This document shows positions 2,455-45,263 of a stretch of DNA of 64,000 nucleotides, one piece after another. The notes beneath the pieces were generated by a model, which was not told the DNA's origin, did not search any database, and saw only the letters and a program-made list of their open reading frames with translations. Each line of letters begins with the position of its first letter. Position 1 is the stretch's first letter. The translations under genes were made by a program, and so were the position numbers. Origin of the DNA: an uncultured delta proteobacterium (lineage in GTDB: Bacteria > Myxococcota > Myxococcia > Myxococcales > Myxococcaceae); contig CAVZMH010000012.1 in NCBI GenBank assembly GCA_963776345.1, forward strand, positions 1 through 64,000, given 5' to 3'.

Positions 2455-2997
2455 ATGAACGCTCTCCCGCAGTCCGTCGTCGCCGTCGAGGCATCCCGCG
2501 CGCGTGCCACCGTCCCGGGCTGGGCGCGCCTGGGTTTCCTCTTCGGGTTGCTCAGCGCGGCGTCGATCGCGCTCTGGGGCCCGATCGGCGTCTCCGGCAC
2601 CTACCCGCGGCTGGTGGGTGCGGCGCTCCGCTGGCTCGTGCCCGGCTGGGCCGGTGCCCACCCCTACCTGGTCAAGATGGGAGCGCTGGCGAAGCCCGAG
2701 AGCTTCCTCGTGCTCGGCCTGCTCATCGGAGGATTCGCCGCCTCCCGGCTCTCGCGCCAGCCGGCGCCGGCACCGGCCGCGATCCACCCGGGCGAGACCC
2801 GCAGCGCGGTCCGCTATCGCGATGCCTTCCTCGGCGGCGTCCTGATCATCTTCGGCGCCAGACTCGCCGGCGGCTGCACCAGCGGGCACATCATCTCCGG
2901 CATCACCCAGCTCTCGCTGAGCGGGATGGTGTTCGCCGCCGGCGTGTTCGTGACGGGGATCCTCACCGCGCGCCTTCTGCAGAGAGGAGGGCGCTGA
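2455..2997 (+). CDS. YeeE/YedE-family sulfur-compound transporter subunit (PmpAB-like)
   Basis: Hydrophobic helices; motif FGARLAGGCTSGH. Confidence 0.9.
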   Translation: MNALPQSVVAVEASRARATVPGWARLGFLFGLLSAASIALWGPIGVSGTYPRLVGAALRWLVPGWAGAHPYLVKMGALAKPESFLVLGLLIGGFAASRLSRQPAPAPAAIHPGETRSAVRYRDAFLGGVLIIFGARLAGGCTSGHIISGITQLSLSGMVFAAGVFVTGILTARLLQRGGR

Positions 2998-3543
2998 ATG
3001 GACCGGCTCTCCGCGCTGCTGGTCGGGGTGGCGATGGGGGCGCTGCTCCAGCGCGTGCGCGCCTCCGACCCCGGGATGATCGCCCGCAACCTGCGCCTGG
3101 AGGATCTCTCGATCATCAAGTTCATGGGCACCGCCATCGCGGTCGGCGCGGTGGTGGTCTCGCTCGCCGGGCTGGCGCTGCCGATGCACCTCGACATCAG
3201 GCCCGCGTACCTGGTCGGTGTGCTCGCCGGTGGTCTGGTGTTCGGAGTCGGCTTTGGGCTGGGCGGCTTCTGTCCGGGCACCTGCGTGGTCGGCCTCGCC
3301 GAGGGTCGCAAGGACGCGCGCTGGGCGCTGCTCGGCGGGATCGCGGGCGCGCTCGTCTTCACCCTGCTCTACGAGCTCGTGGTGGCGCCGCTGCTGCCCC
3401 TGCTCGACCTGGGCAAGGTCACCCTGGCCGACCTGCTGCACCTGCCGGCGCCAGTCGTTGCGGGGGCGATGGCCGCCGTCCTCCTCGCCGGGGTCACGTG
3501 GCTGCCGACCGTGCGCCGCCGGCCGGATGGCCGACCGTCGTGA
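2998..3543 (+). CDS. YeeE/YedE-family sulfur-compound transporter subunit (PmpAB-like)
   Basis: Motif GGLVFGVGFGLGGFCPGT; ATG directly follows the TGA of the preceding gene. Confidence 0.9.
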   Translation: MDRLSALLVGVAMGALLQRVRASDPGMIARNLRLEDLSIIKFMGTAIAVGAVVVSLAGLALPMHLDIRPAYLVGVLAGGLVFGVGFGLGGFCPGTCVVGLAEGRKDARWALLGGIAGALVFTLLYELVVAPLLPLLDLGKVTLADLLHLPAPVVAGAMAAVLLAGVTWLPTVRRRPDGRPS

Positions 3544-3559
3544 TCATCGAGGCGCCCGA

Positions 3560-4507
3560 TCATCGTCGCGCTTGCCGGTAATAGACGGCGTCCTCGGGGA
3601 CCGGCTCGACCAGGTAGTCGCGGGCCTTCTCGGGGAAGACCGGCCGTGGCTTGCTGTCGATGTAGGCGGCGATCTGCTGCGCCTCCTCGTCGGTGAGCGA
3701 GCCCGGGGCCGAGTAGGGCATCGCGTGCCGGACGAAGCTCGCCAGGGTGTACACCCGCGCGGCTCCGGCTCCGTCGTTCCAGGAGCGCGGACCCCAGAGC
3801 GGACCGGGGTGGATGTCGCCGATGTCCACGCCTTGCCCGTCCCGCCCGTGACAGAGCTCGCACTTCTGGCGGTAGAGGCGGGCGCCGCGCGCCGGGTCGA
3901 GGCGGGACAGAGGGATCCGCTTCAGCTGCGCACGCTGGTGGTCGCGCCAGGCCCGGGTGTCCTCGGCGGTGACGCCGTCCGAGAGCCAGCGCAGGTAGGC
4001 GGCGATCGCCTGCACCTCGGGCGCGTCCGGTCCGGGGTGGGGCGTGGCGTTCTCGTGCTCGCCGCTGGGGTCCTTCCGGAGAGCGGTCGAGTTGAGGCTG
4101 CGCAGAAAGCAACCCACCACCCGGTCCTCCAGCGAGAAGGCTCGGCCGGAGCGGCGGTTGTACTCGGGGAAGACGGCGGCGATGCCGACCAGCGGGAGTG
4201 CGCCCTCCTTCTGCCCCGCGTGGAGGTGGCAGCTCCCGCACGACAGCGCGCTGGCGACGCTGCCGCGGGCATGCCGCGGCGTGTCCTGGAAGAGTGCGTA
4301 CCCGCGCCGGATCTGCTCGGCGAGCGCGCCGTCGGCCGGGAGCGGGTCGCGCGCCGGGTCCTTGACCCGCACCGCATTCTCCACGATCGATGCCGACGCC
4401 GGGACCAGGCGCTGCCCGGACGCGACTCCGCCATCCGCCGCCGGGGCTCCGGCGGCGCCAGCTGCGAGGAGCAGGGCCAGCGCCAGGGCCGGAATCGCGG
4501 AGCTCAG
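3560..4507 (-). CDS. tsdA: Diheme cytochrome c, TsdA-type thiosulfate dehydrogenase/tetrathionate reductase family (start uncertain, probably CTG)
   Basis: Two CxxCH motifs (CGSCH, CELCH); RVVGCFLRSLN with the Cys ligand motif; PLWG..SWNDGAG and FVRHAMP; signal-peptide-like N-terminus. Confidence 0.8.
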   Translation of the reverse strand: MSSAIPALALALLLAAGAAGAPAADGGVASGQRLVPASASIVENAVRVKDPARDPLPADGALAEQIRRGYALFQDTPRHARGSVASALSCGSCHLHAGQKEGALPLVGIAAVFPEYNRRSGRAFSLEDRVVGCFLRSLNSTALRKDPSGEHENATPHPGPDAPEVQAIAAYLRWLSDGVTAEDTRAWRDHQRAQLKRIPLSRLDPARGARLYRQKCELCHGRDGQGVDIGDIHPGPLWGPRSWNDGAGAARVYTLASFVRHAMPYSAPGSLTDEEAQQIAAYIDSKPRPVFPEKARDYLVEPVPEDAVYYRQARR

Positions 4508-5265
4508 ATGAGCGGCAACAGCTTCCAGCCGGACTCCATCGCGGCGTGCAGCGCGCCCACGCCCGCCGGGACGATCATGTAACCGGGGAGCATGTTGGCC
4601 TTCCACTCCGCCAGGGCCGCGGCCGGATCGGCGCCCATGCCCATCGCCATCATCCCGGAGAACGCGGTCATCGCGTTGTGGCAGACCATGAAGACCGCGC
4701 CGCGCTTGATGCAGGCCTCGCCGCTCCAGTCCTGGTAGACGTTGCCCCCGGCGCCGGGGTCGCCGTCGAAGCTCATCGAGGTCTGCGCCTTGTAATAGAC
4801 GTTGGAAGTCTCCGGCTTGCCATTGGCGTCGTTGAGACCGAAGGCGGCGCCGAACTTGTACTTGGCCCACATCGCGTCGTTGAGCGCGAGGATGATCGAC
4901 GGGCCGTACAGCACCGCGCCCGCGGCGACCGTGCCCTTGCCCCAGCCGTTGGAGACCTCGCCGGCATTGAGGCTGTTCTGGATGTGGATGTAGAGGCTGG
5001 CGAGCCCGGGGATGATCAGGTGTGGCTGCACCGACTGGTAGATCACCTTGTGCGCCTTCTTGGTGCGCAGCGCCGCCCACATCTTCTTCTCGTCGTAGTC
5101 GGACGGCTTGAGCACCGGGAAGTGGACGGCCGACGGTGGCGGCGGCGGCGGGCCCTTGGCCGGCGGTGCGGACTGGCCTTCGGCGTTGGCCTTGCCGCTG
5201 GTCAACGCCAGCGCTCCGGCAGCAGTGAGTGCGCTCCGCAAGAATAGGCCTCGGGTCATCTCCAT
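4504..5265 (-). CDS. Tat-type exported DsrE-fold protein resembling the Acidithiobacillus-type thiosulfate dehydrogenase (Tsd) family
   Basis: GGAGG RBS; TRGLFL Tat-like signal ending ANA; NSLNA, LALNDAMWAKY, RGAVFMVCHNA, IVPAGVGAL motifs; family match recalled, not searched. Confidence 0.65.
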   Translation of the reverse strand: MEMTRGLFLRSALTAAGALALTSGKANAEGQSAPPAKGPPPPPPSAVHFPVLKPSDYDEKKMWAALRTKKAHKVIYQSVQPHLIIPGLASLYIHIQNSLNAGEVSNGWGKGTVAAGAVLYGPSIILALNDAMWAKYKFGAAFGLNDANGKPETSNVYYKAQTSMSFDGDPGAGGNVYQDWSGEACIKRGAVFMVCHNAMTAFSGMMAMGMGADPAAALAEWKANMLPGYMIVPAGVGALHAAMESGWKLLPLI

Positions 5266-5414
5266 GGCTTCCTCCCCGACGTGCGTGGACCGGGCTCGAC
5301 GCAACCGGTTGGCGTCTCCCGTCGATGAGCAAACCTAATCCGCCCGAACATGATCGACAATGGCCTCGCCAACCTCGAACCTCGGGCACTGGTGCAGCCA
5401 GAAGGGGGATTCAC

Positions 5415-5909
5415 ATGGGCTTCGTTCGCATGGGCATGGTGCTTCCGGCGGTCGTGCTGCTCCTCGGTTCCGCCGGCGGCGCCACCGGGGACGAGCGCGC
5501 GCTGCTCGCCGGAATCAAGGAGGGGAAGATCGTCTACGACATCACCGAGGGAGACGGTAAGGCCCTCGTGACGCGGCTCGAGTCGATCGAGGAGACGCGC
5601 CAGGACCTCATCAAGCAGGGCATCACCCCGCGCTTCGTCCTGTCCTTCCGCGGGCCGGCCACGCTGTTGGTGCAGAGTGATCTGGAGAAGGTGAAGCCGG
5701 AGGCGCGACCCTATGTCGCCCAGATCGCGTCGATGCTGGCGAAGATGGGCAAGACCGCCGGCTTCGACAGCCTCGAGCAGTGCGGGGTCGCGATCCGCCA
5801 TGCCGGCACCAGGGCCGAGAACGTGGTCCCGGCGGTGAAGGTGGTCGCCAACAGCTTCGTCACCCTCATGGCCTACCAGGCGAAGGGCTACGCGTACATC
5901 CGTGGCTGA
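5415..5909 (+). CDS. Secreted DsrE-family protein
   Basis: Signal peptide; KIVYDI, LSFRGPA, LEQCGVA, VVANSFVTLMAYQAKGYAYI pattern typical of single-Cys DsrE proteins. Confidence 0.8.
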   Translation: MGFVRMGMVLPAVVLLLGSAGGATGDERALLAGIKEGKIVYDITEGDGKALVTRLESIEETRQDLIKQGITPRFVLSFRGPATLLVQSDLEKVKPEARPYVAQIASMLAKMGKTAGFDSLEQCGVAIRHAGTRAENVVPAVKVVANSFVTLMAYQAKGYAYIRG

Positions 5910-9273: not shown

Positions 9274-10611
9274 CTAGGCGATCCGCTTCAGCACGCCGCC
9301 GAGCAGGTCCACCGCCTGCTCGATCTCCGGCCGCTCGATGATCAGCGGCGGCGACAGGGCGATGATGTCCCCGGTGACGCGGACCAGGAGCCCGGCCCGG
9401 AAGGACTCCACCAGCGCCTCGTAGCCGCGCGCACCCACCTTCCCGGGCCGGGGCTCGAGCTCGATGCCCGCCACGAGGCCCAGGTTCCGCACGTCGATGA
9501 CGTGGGGCAGCCCCTTCAGCGAGTGCACCGCGTCCTCCCAGAACTGCGCCAGCGACGCCGCGCGCTCGAACAGGCCCTCGCGCCGGTACAGCTCGAGCGT
9601 GGCCAGCCCCGCCGCGCAGGCCAGCGGATGTCCCGAGTACGTGTACCCGTGGAAGAACTCGATGCCCGACTCGGTCGCGTCCACCACCGACTGGTAGATG
9701 CCCCGGCGCACCACCACCGCCCCCATCGGCACCGCGCCGTTGGTGATGCCCTTGGCCACCGTCATCATGTCCGGCTGGATGCCGAAGTAGTTCGCGCCGA
9801 ACGGCGTCCCCAGCCGCCCGAAGCCGGTGATCACCTCGTCGAAGATGAGGAGGATCCCGTGCGCGTCGCAGATCGCCCGGAGCTTCTCCAGATATCCCTT
9901 CGGCGGAACCAGCACCCCGGTCGACCCGGCCATCGGCTCGACGATGACCGCGGCGATGGTCCGCGCGCCGCGCTCGGAGACGATCTTCTCCAGCGCGTCC
10001 GCCAGGTGCGCCCCCCACGCTGGCTGCCCGCGGCTGAAGGCGTTGTGCTGCAGGTCGTGGGTGTGCGGTAGGTGGTCGACCTGGGGCAGGAGCTGCGCGG
10101 CGAACGCCTTCCGGTTGGGCTCGATGCCCCCCACGCTGATGCCCCCGAAGCCCACGCCATGGTACCCGCGCATCCGGCCCACGAAGCGCACCCGCTCCGG
10201 CTGCCCGCGCGCCTGGTGGTAGGCCAGGGCGATCTTCAGCGCGGAGTCCACCGCTTCCGAGCCCGAATTGGCGAAGAAGACGTGGTCCAGGTCGCCGGGG
10301 GCGAGCGCCGCCACCTCGTGCGCCAGGGCGAAGCTCGCCGGGTGCCCCATCTGGAAGCCGGGCGCGAAGTCGAGCGTGGCCGCCGACCGCTGGATGGCCT
10401 CGACGATGGCCGGCCGGCAGTGCCCGGCGTTCACGCACCACAGGCCCGCGGTGCCGTCGAGGACGACCCGGCCGTCCACGTCCCGGTAGTGCATCCCCGA
10501 GGCGGTGGCCAGCAGGCGGGGCGCCCGCTTGAAGGCCCGGTTGGCGGTGAACGGCATCCAGAGCTCCTCCAGCGAGAGCTCCTGGGCGGCGGCGGTGGGA
10601 GGCAGGGGCAT
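9274..10611 (-). CDS. Class III aminotransferase (omega-amino acid/beta-alanine:pyruvate type)
   Basis: WMPFTANR, SGSEA, GYHG, FDEVITGFGRLG, AKG, HGYTYSGHP motifs. Confidence 0.92.
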   Translation of the reverse strand: MPLPPTAAAQELSLEELWMPFTANRAFKRAPRLLATASGMHYRDVDGRVVLDGTAGLWCVNAGHCRPAIVEAIQRSAATLDFAPGFQMGHPASFALAHEVAALAPGDLDHVFFANSGSEAVDSALKIALAYHQARGQPERVRFVGRMRGYHGVGFGGISVGGIEPNRKAFAAQLLPQVDHLPHTHDLQHNAFSRGQPAWGAHLADALEKIVSERGARTIAAVIVEPMAGSTGVLVPPKGYLEKLRAICDAHGILLIFDEVITGFGRLGTPFGANYFGIQPDMMTVAKGITNGAVPMGAVVVRRGIYQSVVDATESGIEFFHGYTYSGHPLACAAGLATLELYRREGLFERAASLAQFWEDAVHSLKGLPHVIDVRNLGLVAGIELEPRPGKVGARGYEALVESFRAGLLVRVTGDIIALSPPLIIERPEIEQAVDLLGGVLKRIA

Positions 10612-43609: not shown

Positions 43610-44266
43610 TCACCCGGGGGTGCCGAGGTCCACCGGGCGCGTGGCGACCACCTGCCGCGCCCGCTTTCGGCGGCGCGAGCGGAGCACATCGACGATCCGC
43701 ACCAGGAAGAGCGCTCCGAGGATGGCCGCCCAGGTCATCGGAACGCGCACGTCCAGCTTCACCCTCCAGATGAAGTGGACGACGGCCAGCACCCCCGCCA
43801 CGTAGGCCAGCCGGTGCAGCGCCTTCCACCGCAGGAACCCGAGCCGCCGGACCGAGGCGTCGGTGCTGGTCCAGACCAGCGGCAGGAGCGTCAGGAAGGC
43901 GAGGAAGCCCACCACCATGAACTTCCGCTGCGTCACGTCGCCCCAGAGCACCGACCAGTCGAACTGCTGATCGATGGCCACGTAGGTCGTGAGGTGGAGC
44001 GCGGCGTAGAAGGCGGTGAAGAGCCCGAGCATCCGCCGCACGCGAACGGGCCACGCCCAGCCGGTGAGGATCTTCAGCGGGGTGCAGGCGAGCGAGGCGA
44101 TCAGGAACACCAGCGCCAGGTACCCGAGCTGGTTCAGGCCAATGGCCACCGCGTCCGCCCCGAGCGTCCGGTGCCACGCGCGCCAGCCCAGCACCGCCAG
44201 CGGGATCAGCGCCCCGGCGAAGAGGCCGGGCTTCAACCAGGGAAGTGGCGGACTGCGGGGAGCCAT
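43610..44266 (-). CDS. msrQ: Methionine sulfoxide reductase heme-binding subunit
   Basis: RRMLGL..AFYAALH, WTS, WKALHRLAY, H in last TM. Confidence 0.93.
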   Translation of the reverse strand: MAPRSPPLPWLKPGLFAGALIPLAVLGWRAWHRTLGADAVAIGLNQLGYLALVFLIASLACTPLKILTGWAWPVRVRRMLGLFTAFYAALHLTTYVAIDQQFDWSVLWGDVTQRKFMVVGFLAFLTLLPLVWTSTDASVRRLGFLRWKALHRLAYVAGVLAVVHFIWRVKLDVRVPMTWAAILGALFLVRIVDVLRSRRRKRARQVVATRPVDLGTPG

Positions 44267-44270
44267 CGCT

Positions 44271-45263
44271 TCAGTAGAGCGTCCGCGGGTCGAGCCCGGC
44301 GTAGAGCTTCGCGACCTCGTCGGCGTAGCCGTTGAAGGGCAGCGTCTTGCGCCGGGCGAGCTCGCCGATGCGCCGCTCGGTGGCCTGGCTCCACCGCGGG
44401 TGCGAGACGTCGGGGTTCACGTTGGCGTAGAACCCGTACTCCCGCGGGCCCTCGAGCGCCCAGGTGGTCGGAGGCTGCTTCTCCACCAAGCTGATCTTCA
44501 CGATGCTCTTGATGCCCTTGAAGCCGTACTTCCAGGGCACCACCAGGCGCAGCGGCGCGCCGTTCTGGTTGGGAAGCGCCTTCCCGTAGAGCCCCGCGGC
44601 GAGCAGGGTCAGCGGATGGGTCGCCTCGTCCATCCGGAGGCCCTCGACGTACGGCCACTCGAGGATGTGCGTGCGCTGGAGCGGCATCTGCTGCGGATCC
44701 AGCAGGGTCTGGAAGGCGACGTACTTCGCCGATCCGAGCGGCTCGACGCGCCGGATGAGGTCGCCGAGCGGGAACCCCAGCCAGGGGATGACCATGCTCC
44801 ACGCTTCCACGCAGCGCATCCGGTAGACGCGCTCCTCGAGCGGGAACCACTTGAGGAGCTGGTCGATGTCGACGGTGAGCGGGTTCTTGACCAGCCCGTC
44901 GACGGTCACGGTCCACGGCCGCGTCCTCAGCGTGCCGGCGTTGGCCGCGGGGTCCGGCTTGTCCGTGCCGAACTCGTAGAAGTTGTTGTACCCGGTGATG
45001 TCCTCGTACCGGGTGGGCGTCTCATCCGTGCTGTAGCGGCCGAGAATCTTGAGTTGCGGCGGCTCGGGCGCGGGCTTCCCCTTCGCGCCTGCGGCGCGTG
45101 CGAGTCCCGGCCCGCCCTCGGTGAGGGCGACCAGCCCCGCGCCGGTCGCCGCCGCGGTGAGCACGCCCAGGCCGGCGTTCTTCAAGAATTCGCGGCGGCG
45201 GAGGTACAGGGGCTCGGGGGTGATCTCGCGGGAGGGAGGCTCGGGGGTCTCGGGCTTGGACAT
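44271..45263 (-). CDS. msrP: Methionine sulfoxide reductase molybdoenzyme subunit
   Basis: RRREFL Tat motif; [27 protein letters not shown]. Confidence 0.96.

Follow-up and report, generated by a model that had tools for sequence, protein, structure and literature searches.

A conserved, apparently undescribed sulfur module pairing a TsdA-type cytochrome with a DsrE-fold protein of the Tsd family in an uncultured myxobacterium

Analysis of a 64,000-nucleotide stretch of DNA from an uncultured delta proteobacterium of the family Myxococcaceae (GenBank assembly GCA_963776345.1, contig CAVZMH010000012.1, positions 1 to 64,000 of the forward strand; hereafter, the window) demonstrated that five genes at 2455–5909 form a module of known parts that is real, conserved and, apparently, undescribed. 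The module combines a TsdA dihaem cytochrome c, a DsrE-fold protein of the Tsd family, a second DsrE-fold protein and the two halves of a split YeeE/YedE transporter. Its conserved core is the Tsd-family gene together with tsdA, a pair found again in several phyla; the transporter is interchangeable between the PmpAB and TauE types, the second DsrE gene is restricted, and the five-gene form is lineage-specific. Rather than being a second enzyme, the Tsd-family protein probably carries sulfur outside the cytoplasm after being loaded by TsdA. We give an even chance to the proposal that the locus captures thiosulfate in the periplasm by a relay: TsdA would perform the redox step, and the thiosulfonate would be taken up by Cys195 of the Tsd-family protein.

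All five reading frames were found where an earlier reading made from the letters of the window (the sequence-only reading) had placed them, with the motifs GGCTSG, GFCPG, RVVGCF, VCHN and EQCG (Table 1). Close homologues are labelled Myxococcaceae or Myxococcales, which makes a myxobacterial host likely. A scan for promoters and terminators gave no signal exceeding that of shuffled sequence.

Table 1. Features of the sulfur locus in the window and TGA sites in tsdA of relatives
Feature	Position	Strand	Description
PmpA-type half of split YeeE/YedE transporter	2455–2997	+	180 residues; single Cys141 in GGCTSG; PF04143
PmpB-type half of split transporter	2998–3543	+	181 residues; Cys92 in GFCPG; PF04143, DUF6691
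TsdA dihaem cytochrome c	3560–4507	-	315 residues from likely CTG start; PF21342 SoxA/TsdA and cytochrome c
CTGA overlap of Tsd-family stop and likely tsdA CTG start	4504–4507	-	Candidate translational coupling
Tsd-family DsrE-fold protein	4504–5265	-	253 residues; degenerate twin-arginine leader; conserved Cys195
Second DsrE-fold protein	5415–5909	+	164 residues; hydrophobic N-terminus; single Cys123 (EQCG); divergent from Tsd-family gene
tsdA TGA sites in relatives	L011:7810 (genome); L097:7860, L099:2692, L101:2543, L137:1390, L140:1417 (metagenomes)		All in TauE version of module

The identification of the cytochrome as TsdA was confirmed by sequence comparison with the PDB, where it matched A. 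vinosum TsdA structures at an E value of 7.5e-41 with all haem ligands kept. Two CxxCH haem sites are present (CGSCH at 90 and CELCH at 216), and Cys133 (the catalytic residue and haem-1 ligand), Arg119 and Arg129 each have an aligned counterpart in the A. vinosum enzyme. The ligand of haem 2 is Met263, and the preceding Ala262 replaces Lys208 of the A. vinosum enzyme, a position known to vary. Interconversion of thiosulfate and tetrathionate by the window TsdA is predicted from its family, in which the roles of the catalytic Cys ligand and two active-site Arg have been described (PMC6879331).

The tsdA frame has no ATG, GTG or TTG start ahead of its signal-like hydrophobic N-terminus. The in-frame candidate is a CTG at 4507–4505, which overlaps the stop codon of the upstream Tsd-family gene. 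The same junction was compared in 17 displayed relatives: it reads TTGA with tsdA in frame in 12 and CTGA in three, and the remaining two have an ATG 5 nt downstream and a frameshift, respectively. Because the start/stop overlap is kept in relatives, the CTGA of the window is best read as a coupled CTG start of tsdA. Co-translation of the two genes, claimed by the sequence-only reading, is therefore supported as translational coupling by the overlap kept in 15 of 17 relatives. The idea that tsdA, lacking an ATG, is a broken gene was rejected on the same ground. A contig of run X8, a run whose independence from the source of the window is uncertain, covers 4414–4564 with zero differences.

The Tsd-family protein gave zero Pfam matches, and PDB sequence searches with either DsrE protein alone returned nothing significant. 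Its AlphaFold2 model (predicted local distance difference test [pLDDT], 89.8) matched ST0148 (2pd2) with a Z score of 14.2 and a root-mean-square deviation (rmsd) of 1.5 Å over 108 residues and MTH1491 with a Z score of 13.9, followed by YchN, DsrEFH and TusBCD. The ESM Atlas returned unnamed clusters with just one lead to DsrE, at 0.83. The second DsrE protein scored 21 bits against PF02635 (gathering cut-off, 22.7), and its model (pLDDT, 88.2; Z score, 16.8) matched 2pd2 and 1l1s with an rmsd of 1.5–1.7 Å over 108–111 residues. The DsrE fold assigned to both proteins at the outset thus stands for the predicted models, with Z scores of 14.2 and 16.8 to ST0148/MTH1491.

Both DsrE proteins retain a conserved cysteine. 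Cys123 of the second is invariant across 44 rows, and Cys195 of the Tsd-family protein is conserved in 138 of 139 rows, the conserved Cys of the family profile aligning with the Cys of MTH1491. The reported Cys in VCHN is present, but the Tsd-family protein has two Cys, of which only Cys195 is conserved, and beyond this single residue no recognisable cofactor site or motif was found. Its export by the twin-arginine translocation (Tat) pathway, proposed at the outset, is an inference, as the leader has a single-arginine motif (TRGLFL, with RG and not RR). None of 60 close homologues has RR, RK (35 of 60) and RG (18 of 60) being found there instead; RR is present in 4 of 52 homologues at intermediate distance and in 93 of 147 distant ones.

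Against NF052225, the model of the Acidithiobacillus-type Tsd, the protein scored 38.3 bits (E value, 9.4e-10) and did not reach the cut-off of 300. The Tsd family comprises 1,476 representatives (50% identity clusters) at an E value of 0.001. In one scan, 72 of 74 of its proteins touched NF052225 weakly; among 75 plus 10 relatives scanned, the best scores were 113 and 121 bits, and four plasmid-encoded members exceeded the cut-off with 371–421 bits. With these four, the window protein shares 23–29% identity (tblastn E values, 1e-7 to 2e-5), the CHNA Cys and the pattern RG..F..CHNA. The suspected kinship to the Acidithiobacillus Tsd family was accordingly retained, as that of a distant relative with an aligned CHNA Cys. 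The further suggestion that two unrelated thiosulfate enzymes are co-translated was not supported in that form, given 38 bits against 300 and the lack of a recognisable cofactor site.

On plasmids of proteobacteria, Tsd members that exceed the cut-off have tsdBA or doxD next to them. Of 25 records retrieved in a search of plasmids, 14 had tsdA within ~5 kb (six genera), five had doxD within ~2 kb (one near-identical element), one was unresolved, and five had neither gene on the plasmid. In A. ferrooxidans, tsd adjoins sbp, doxDA and rhd, and Acidithiobacillus is described as being without TsdA (PMC6335251). The Tsd family is hence found beside either tetrathionate-forming oxidoreductase, TsdA or DoxD. 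Since the family is nested in TsdA-containing genomes or lies beside DoxD, a partner or carrier fits better than a redundant oxidoreductase. The available text of PMC6335251 treats TsdA and Tsd as different enzyme kinds and lists the mechanism of Tsd as open.

Recurrence of the module was surveyed with a profile built from 45 homologues. It retrieved 79 loci from genomes (drawn from the best 80 of 184 candidates) and 80 from metagenomes (the best 80 of 261); genes at these loci were called with a simple codon-model caller, which misses some genes. All five genes were present at 12 of the 159 loci (L006–L010, L012, L014, L015, L086, L089, L091, and L095), including two loci in one genome, two resembling one strain, and two (L007 and L015) with one frameshifted gene each. 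Because it recurs in these relatives, the arrangement is not due to chance, and the gene-neighbourhood survey bears out the expectation that the set is conserved across genomes. An alternative Myxococcales order is DsrE2, Tsd-family, TauE and tsdA. The Eremiobacterota-type order is Tsd-family, TauE, rhodanese and tsdA, often with a dioxygenase–rhodanese fusion and a two-domain rhodanese upstream; MsrA adjoins the module in these loci. Rhodaneses and persulfide-dioxygenase-like genes also neighbour Tsd-family genes in other lineages. Loci L014 and L015 are two five-gene copies in one genome, and the Tsd-family gene of L015 is fragmented.

Flanks of 2.5 kb on both sides were available for 78 loci, excluding those with fewer than 140 aligned residues. 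At 27 of these, tsdA lay within 3.5 kb; 23 of them, but none of the 51 loci without tsdA in that range, also had PmpB or TauE nearby. Within the window's own genus, just one of 12 other genomes has the Tsd-family gene, so the module is patchy. A quick Tsd-family tree was used descriptively only.

The link between the two core families extends to whole genomes. TsdA was present elsewhere in 40 of 44 searched genomes whose Tsd-family copy is not beside tsdA (57 such loci). Among 121 genomes of Gemmatimonadota (the phylum of G517), TsdA was found in 51 and the Tsd family in 49, all of them with TsdA, and 23 Tsd-family/tsdA pairs were no more than 300 bp apart. Among 151 genomes of Bacteroidota (the phylum of G647), the corresponding numbers were 16 and 9, again all with TsdA, and by coordinates all nine Tsd-family genes lay within 300 bp of tsdA. 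Each of these samples contains a centre genome that was picked for having the Tsd family. Of 363 genomes belonging to the window's order, 31 (including G220) had TsdA and at least 12, a floor set by a stricter first look, had the Tsd family, with both in 10. Kin not being independent, Fisher values were given no weight. The dependence is one-way: TsdA occurs without the Tsd family in 21 genomes of the order, 7 of Bacteroidota and 2 of Gemmatimonadota.

The PmpA-type protein aligned with positions 178–309 of the 310 positions of PF04143 (64 bits; cut-off, 27; E value, 2e-17) and the PmpB-type protein with positions 8–149 (47 bits; cut-off, 27; E value, 4e-12) as well as with DUF6691. PmpA is the C-terminal and PmpB the N-terminal half of YeeE (PMC11582611). 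The pmpB start is the base directly after the pmpA stop, and the Cys of GGCTSG and GFCPG were kept in 14 of 14 PmpA and 19 of 19 PmpB alignments, respectively. Judged by sequence, the pair is a split transporter of the PmpA/PmpB type, half-size and with both Cys.

The absence of TsdB and sox genes that had been noted for the window extends to the whole genome (98% complete) with the queries used. No match to TsdB, DoxD, TetH or SQR was found with single-protein queries, and none to DoxA; SoxZ gave 0 matches and SoxB at best 75 of 550 bits, SoxY, SoxC and SoxD not being searched. No binding-protein gene (sbp) was found in the locus. Elsewhere in the genome there are five TauE genes, several rhodaneses and one sulfite/nitrite reductase domain. 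At G000:C16:77939-79060, a rhodanese-domain gene precedes a persulfide-dioxygenase-like one, whose alignment is spread over two frames (a frameshift or an assembly error).

A three-step mechanism is proposed for the relay. As is known for the TsdA family, thiosulfate would be oxidatively attached to Cys133 at haem 1, with the electrons leaving through haem 2. Cys195 of the Tsd-family protein would next receive the -SSO3 group, by direct transfer like that from SoxAX to SoxYZ or by way of free tetrathionate, as for archaeal DsrE3A. In the third and weakest step, the cysteines of the second DsrE protein and of PmpAB might carry sulfur across the inner membrane, as SoxT1A does, for cytoplasmic use or oxidation, and TauE would take the transporter role in relatives. 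In the literature, the cysteinyl-thiosulfate step is common to SoxAX and TsdA, which diverge only in what accepts the product (PMC6879331), the Cys of DsrE3A is loaded with thiosulfonate by tetrathionate and hands it over (PMC4175335), and the YeeE-like SoxT1A imports sulfur (PMC11582611). The relay is favoured by the intact TsdA, the DsrE fold with one conserved Cys, the coupled translation, the nested distribution, the transporter, rhodanese and persulfide-dioxygenase-like genes near Tsd-family genes, and the UGA forms of both Cys in relatives.

Several observations weigh against the relay. Purified A. ferrooxidans Tsd has been reported as a thiosulfate dehydrogenase (PMC6335251). The Tat motif of the window protein is degenerate, and the cytoplasmic sink is uncertain, with no SQR (one query) and a persulfide-dioxygenase-like gene lying in two frames. 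TsdA occurs without the Tsd family in 21 of 31 TsdA genomes of the order, 7 of 16 in Bacteroidota and 2 of 51 in Gemmatimonadota and, occurring so often alone, does not need a Tsd-family partner. No tsdA was found within 3.5 kb at 51 of the 78 long-flank loci, Gemmatimonadota genomes reach 6–7 Tsd-family matches (e.g., G629 and G559), and the sampled genomes are kin, so that the counts overstate independence. Genomes G028 and G230 carry the Tsd family with zero TsdA match, and G028 also has zero DoxA; in this counter-example, the Tsd-family gene lies between a tetrathionate-hydrolase homologue (E value, 1.7e-48) and a ModA-like gene (L005:6412-9301 for the three genes). That DoxDA serves every TsdA-less host was rejected, with DoxA in 0 of 5 genomes tested. 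Locus L005, from the window's order, constitutes an Acidithiobacillus-like thiosulfate cluster. Some of the multiple Gemmatimonadota copies are in tandem, usually with one tsdA.

The reported activity also underlies an alternative that we consider unlikely, namely, that the Tsd-family protein is itself a thiosulfate dehydrogenase forming the S–S bond on its own Cys, with TsdA or DoxDA as electron acceptor or backup. Homology to NF052225 and the RG..F..CHNA pattern common with the four above-cut-off members agree with it, as does the report that A. ferrooxidans Tsd is active and reduced neither ubiquinone nor horse cytochrome c (PMC6335251). However, the window protein reaches 38 of 300 bits at 23–29% identity and has one conserved Cys and no cofactor motif, and TsdA retains a full catalytic site, which a pure electron wire would not need.

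A similarly low probability is given to a module working in the reverse or outward direction. TsdA would then reduce tetrathionate, or dispose of thiosulfate or sulfane sulfur that arises when sulfide is detoxified in the cytoplasm and leaves through PmpAB/TauE. The DsrE proteins would scavenge or release thiosulfonate, protecting periplasmic thiols. Ala262 is a non-ligand at the Lys208 position, like the Asn of the C. jejuni reductase, in which N254G leans reductive (PMC5146829); the same paper indicates that the residue at the Lys208/Asn254 position does not simply set direction. The zero TsdB match in the genome (single-protein query), the annotation of TauE as an exporter and the SQR-like, dioxygenase, DsbA/DsbC/TlpA and MsrA genes added in relatives are compatible with such a role, but proteobacterial members adjoin tsdBA and, once, oxidase genes, which points to oxidation. 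Mere co-regulation in a sulfur-stress regulon, without substrate exchange, is very unlikely: most Eremiobacterota Tsd-family copies are far from tsdA and gene order varies, but the start/stop overlap is kept in 15 of 17 relatives, the genes are directly adjacent in three phylum-level samples, and the family is nested inside TsdA genomes.

Variants in relatives bear on the reactive residues of both core proteins. In six relatives, a TGA lies at the codon of the TsdA catalytic Cys, compared with 49 Cys codons among the 55 alignments covering this column. The frame stays open for a further 174–185 residues, second haem included, and the six proteins share 67–83% mutual identity and form one clade (support, 88; FastTree). 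A hairpin of the selenocysteine insertion sequence (SECIS) type, judged by stringent criteria derived from the bacterial SECIS model in PMC13188914, lies 23–24 nt downstream in six of six; none of 17 Cys homologues has it, nor does the window. Four of four four-fold codons in the hairpin are invariant versus 16 of 69 elsewhere. SelA and SelB scored above cut-off in the genomes of L011, G028 and the window, the other five TGA-type loci being metagenome contigs. The six relatives, and not the window, are predicted to encode a selenocysteine (Sec) TsdA. The Tsd-family gene of G028 likewise has a TGA at the conserved Cys with a similar hairpin, and database entries P0273 and P0276 are cut there. 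That UGA stands, in relatives, for the Cys of TsdA as well as for that of the Tsd family suggests that these residues are reactive. TsdA is not among the 119 selenoprotein families in Table 1 of PMC13188914 (a 2026 catalogue), and the sole close case for such cytochromes in the literature covered is MccSep, whose Sec is not a haem ligand in the available text of PMC13510729. The UGA variants would be a naturally occurring His/Sec counterpart of a His/Cys haem enzyme that has been much studied; standard gene callers would split such genes.

A wider proposal is put forward tentatively, at somewhat less than even chances: the whole Tsd family, including the A. ferrooxidans enzyme, may be a periplasmic DsrE-fold analogue of SoxYZ loaded by TsdA or DoxDA, giving heterotrophs of soil and fresh water a widespread, Sox-independent way to capture thiosulfate and import sulfur, some lineages having a Sec-ligated haem in full-length TsdA or Sec in the carrier. 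TsdA and Acidithiobacillus Tsd have so far been held to be unrelated thiosulfate dehydrogenases with separate distributions (PMC6335251). The DsrE fold of the Tsd family and its travel with TsdA or DoxD make Cys loading by TsdA directly testable. If true, the proposal would account for what becomes of the TsdA product in the many heterotrophs that have no Sox system and would put functional labels on a large family now annotated as ‘hypothetical’ or ‘transcriptional initiation protein Tat’. Cultured, tractable hosts include Paraburkholderia fungorum, Methylobacterium radiotolerans and Gluconobacter oxydans 621H (on plasmids) and Aestuariibaculum marinum.

Further gene sets were observed on plasmids. 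In the cultured P. fungorum, plasmid NZ_CP099644.1 (L254:1-9364) carries SQR-like, dioxygenase-like, TauE, DsbC, DsrE and TlpA genes, two binding proteins, Tsd, a TsdB-like gene and TsdA, in a run adjoining a Tn3 transposase; its small DsrE is without the residues flanking the Cys of P0005 and aligns loosely. The Bradyrhizobium SK17 plasmid (L252:5776-12558) has Tsd, a binding protein, a SoxB-like hydrolase (339 of 550 bits) and tsdBA, a set resembling TsdA plus a SoxB route. A tsd-sbp-doxD cassette on the G. oxydans 621H plasmid (L253:5767-8729) is near-identical in Gluconobacter, Acetobacter and Kozakia plasmids. Outside the locus, the window encodes an msrPQ periplasmic methionine sulfoxide reductase pair (43613–45263, minus strand; above NCBIfam cut-offs) and an ordinary omega-aminotransferase AptA (9277–10611, minus strand; above cut-off).

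In the literature covered, with subscription papers mostly and supplements outside it, no paper was found that ties TsdA to an exported DsrE/Tsd-family protein or gives Tsd a DsrE fold. The window TsdA resembles the enzymes of A. vinosum (4wq7/4v2k), C. jejuni and M. purpuratum (TsdBA, 5lo9) in its two CxxCH sites, Cys ligand, both Arg and haem-2 Met, but has Ala at the Lys208/Asn254 position and no TsdB match and is coupled to a DsrE-fold gene. Like A. ferrooxidans Tsd (AFE_0042), compared via the four plasmid members and not AFE_0042 itself, the Tsd-family protein is cofactor-free, leader-bearing, similar in length, has the CHNA Cys and adjoins a tetrathionate-forming oxidoreductase. In contrast to the tsd-sbp-doxDA-rhd cluster, its partner is TsdA, there is no ModA-like binding protein, and the score is 38 of 300 bits. 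The proposed likeness to SoxAX/SoxYZ with SoxT1A of Hyphomicrobium denitrificans lies in a periplasmic Cys carrier that receives its load from a His/Cys-haem enzyme and in sulfur import through a transporter of the YeeE type (PMC6879331; PMC11582611), whereas the carrier here has a DsrE fold and is not SoxYZ, the genome giving 0 SoxZ matches and SoxB below cut-off. DsrE3A/TusA of Metallosphaera cuprina provides a precedent for Cys-S-thiosulfonate chemistry and shares, with YchN, MTH1491 and ST0148, the fold and Cys position. However, DsrE3A, YchN, MTH1491 and ST0148 are cytoplasmic and the window proteins carry export-type leaders; DsrE3A has two conserved Cys and the window proteins one, and the Tsd family adds large insertions. 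Two half-size PF04143 proteins, each with a conserved Cys, recall PmpAB, but the window halves, known here from sequence alone, have ~180 residues versus ~130 and are interchangeable with TauE. Finally, MccSep/ExtKL (PMC13510729) resembles the UGA form of the relatives only, as Sec in a sulfur-converting cytochrome c; in MccSep, Sec lies beside a His/Cys haem, whereas Sec in the TsdA of the relatives would itself occupy the haem-ligand position.

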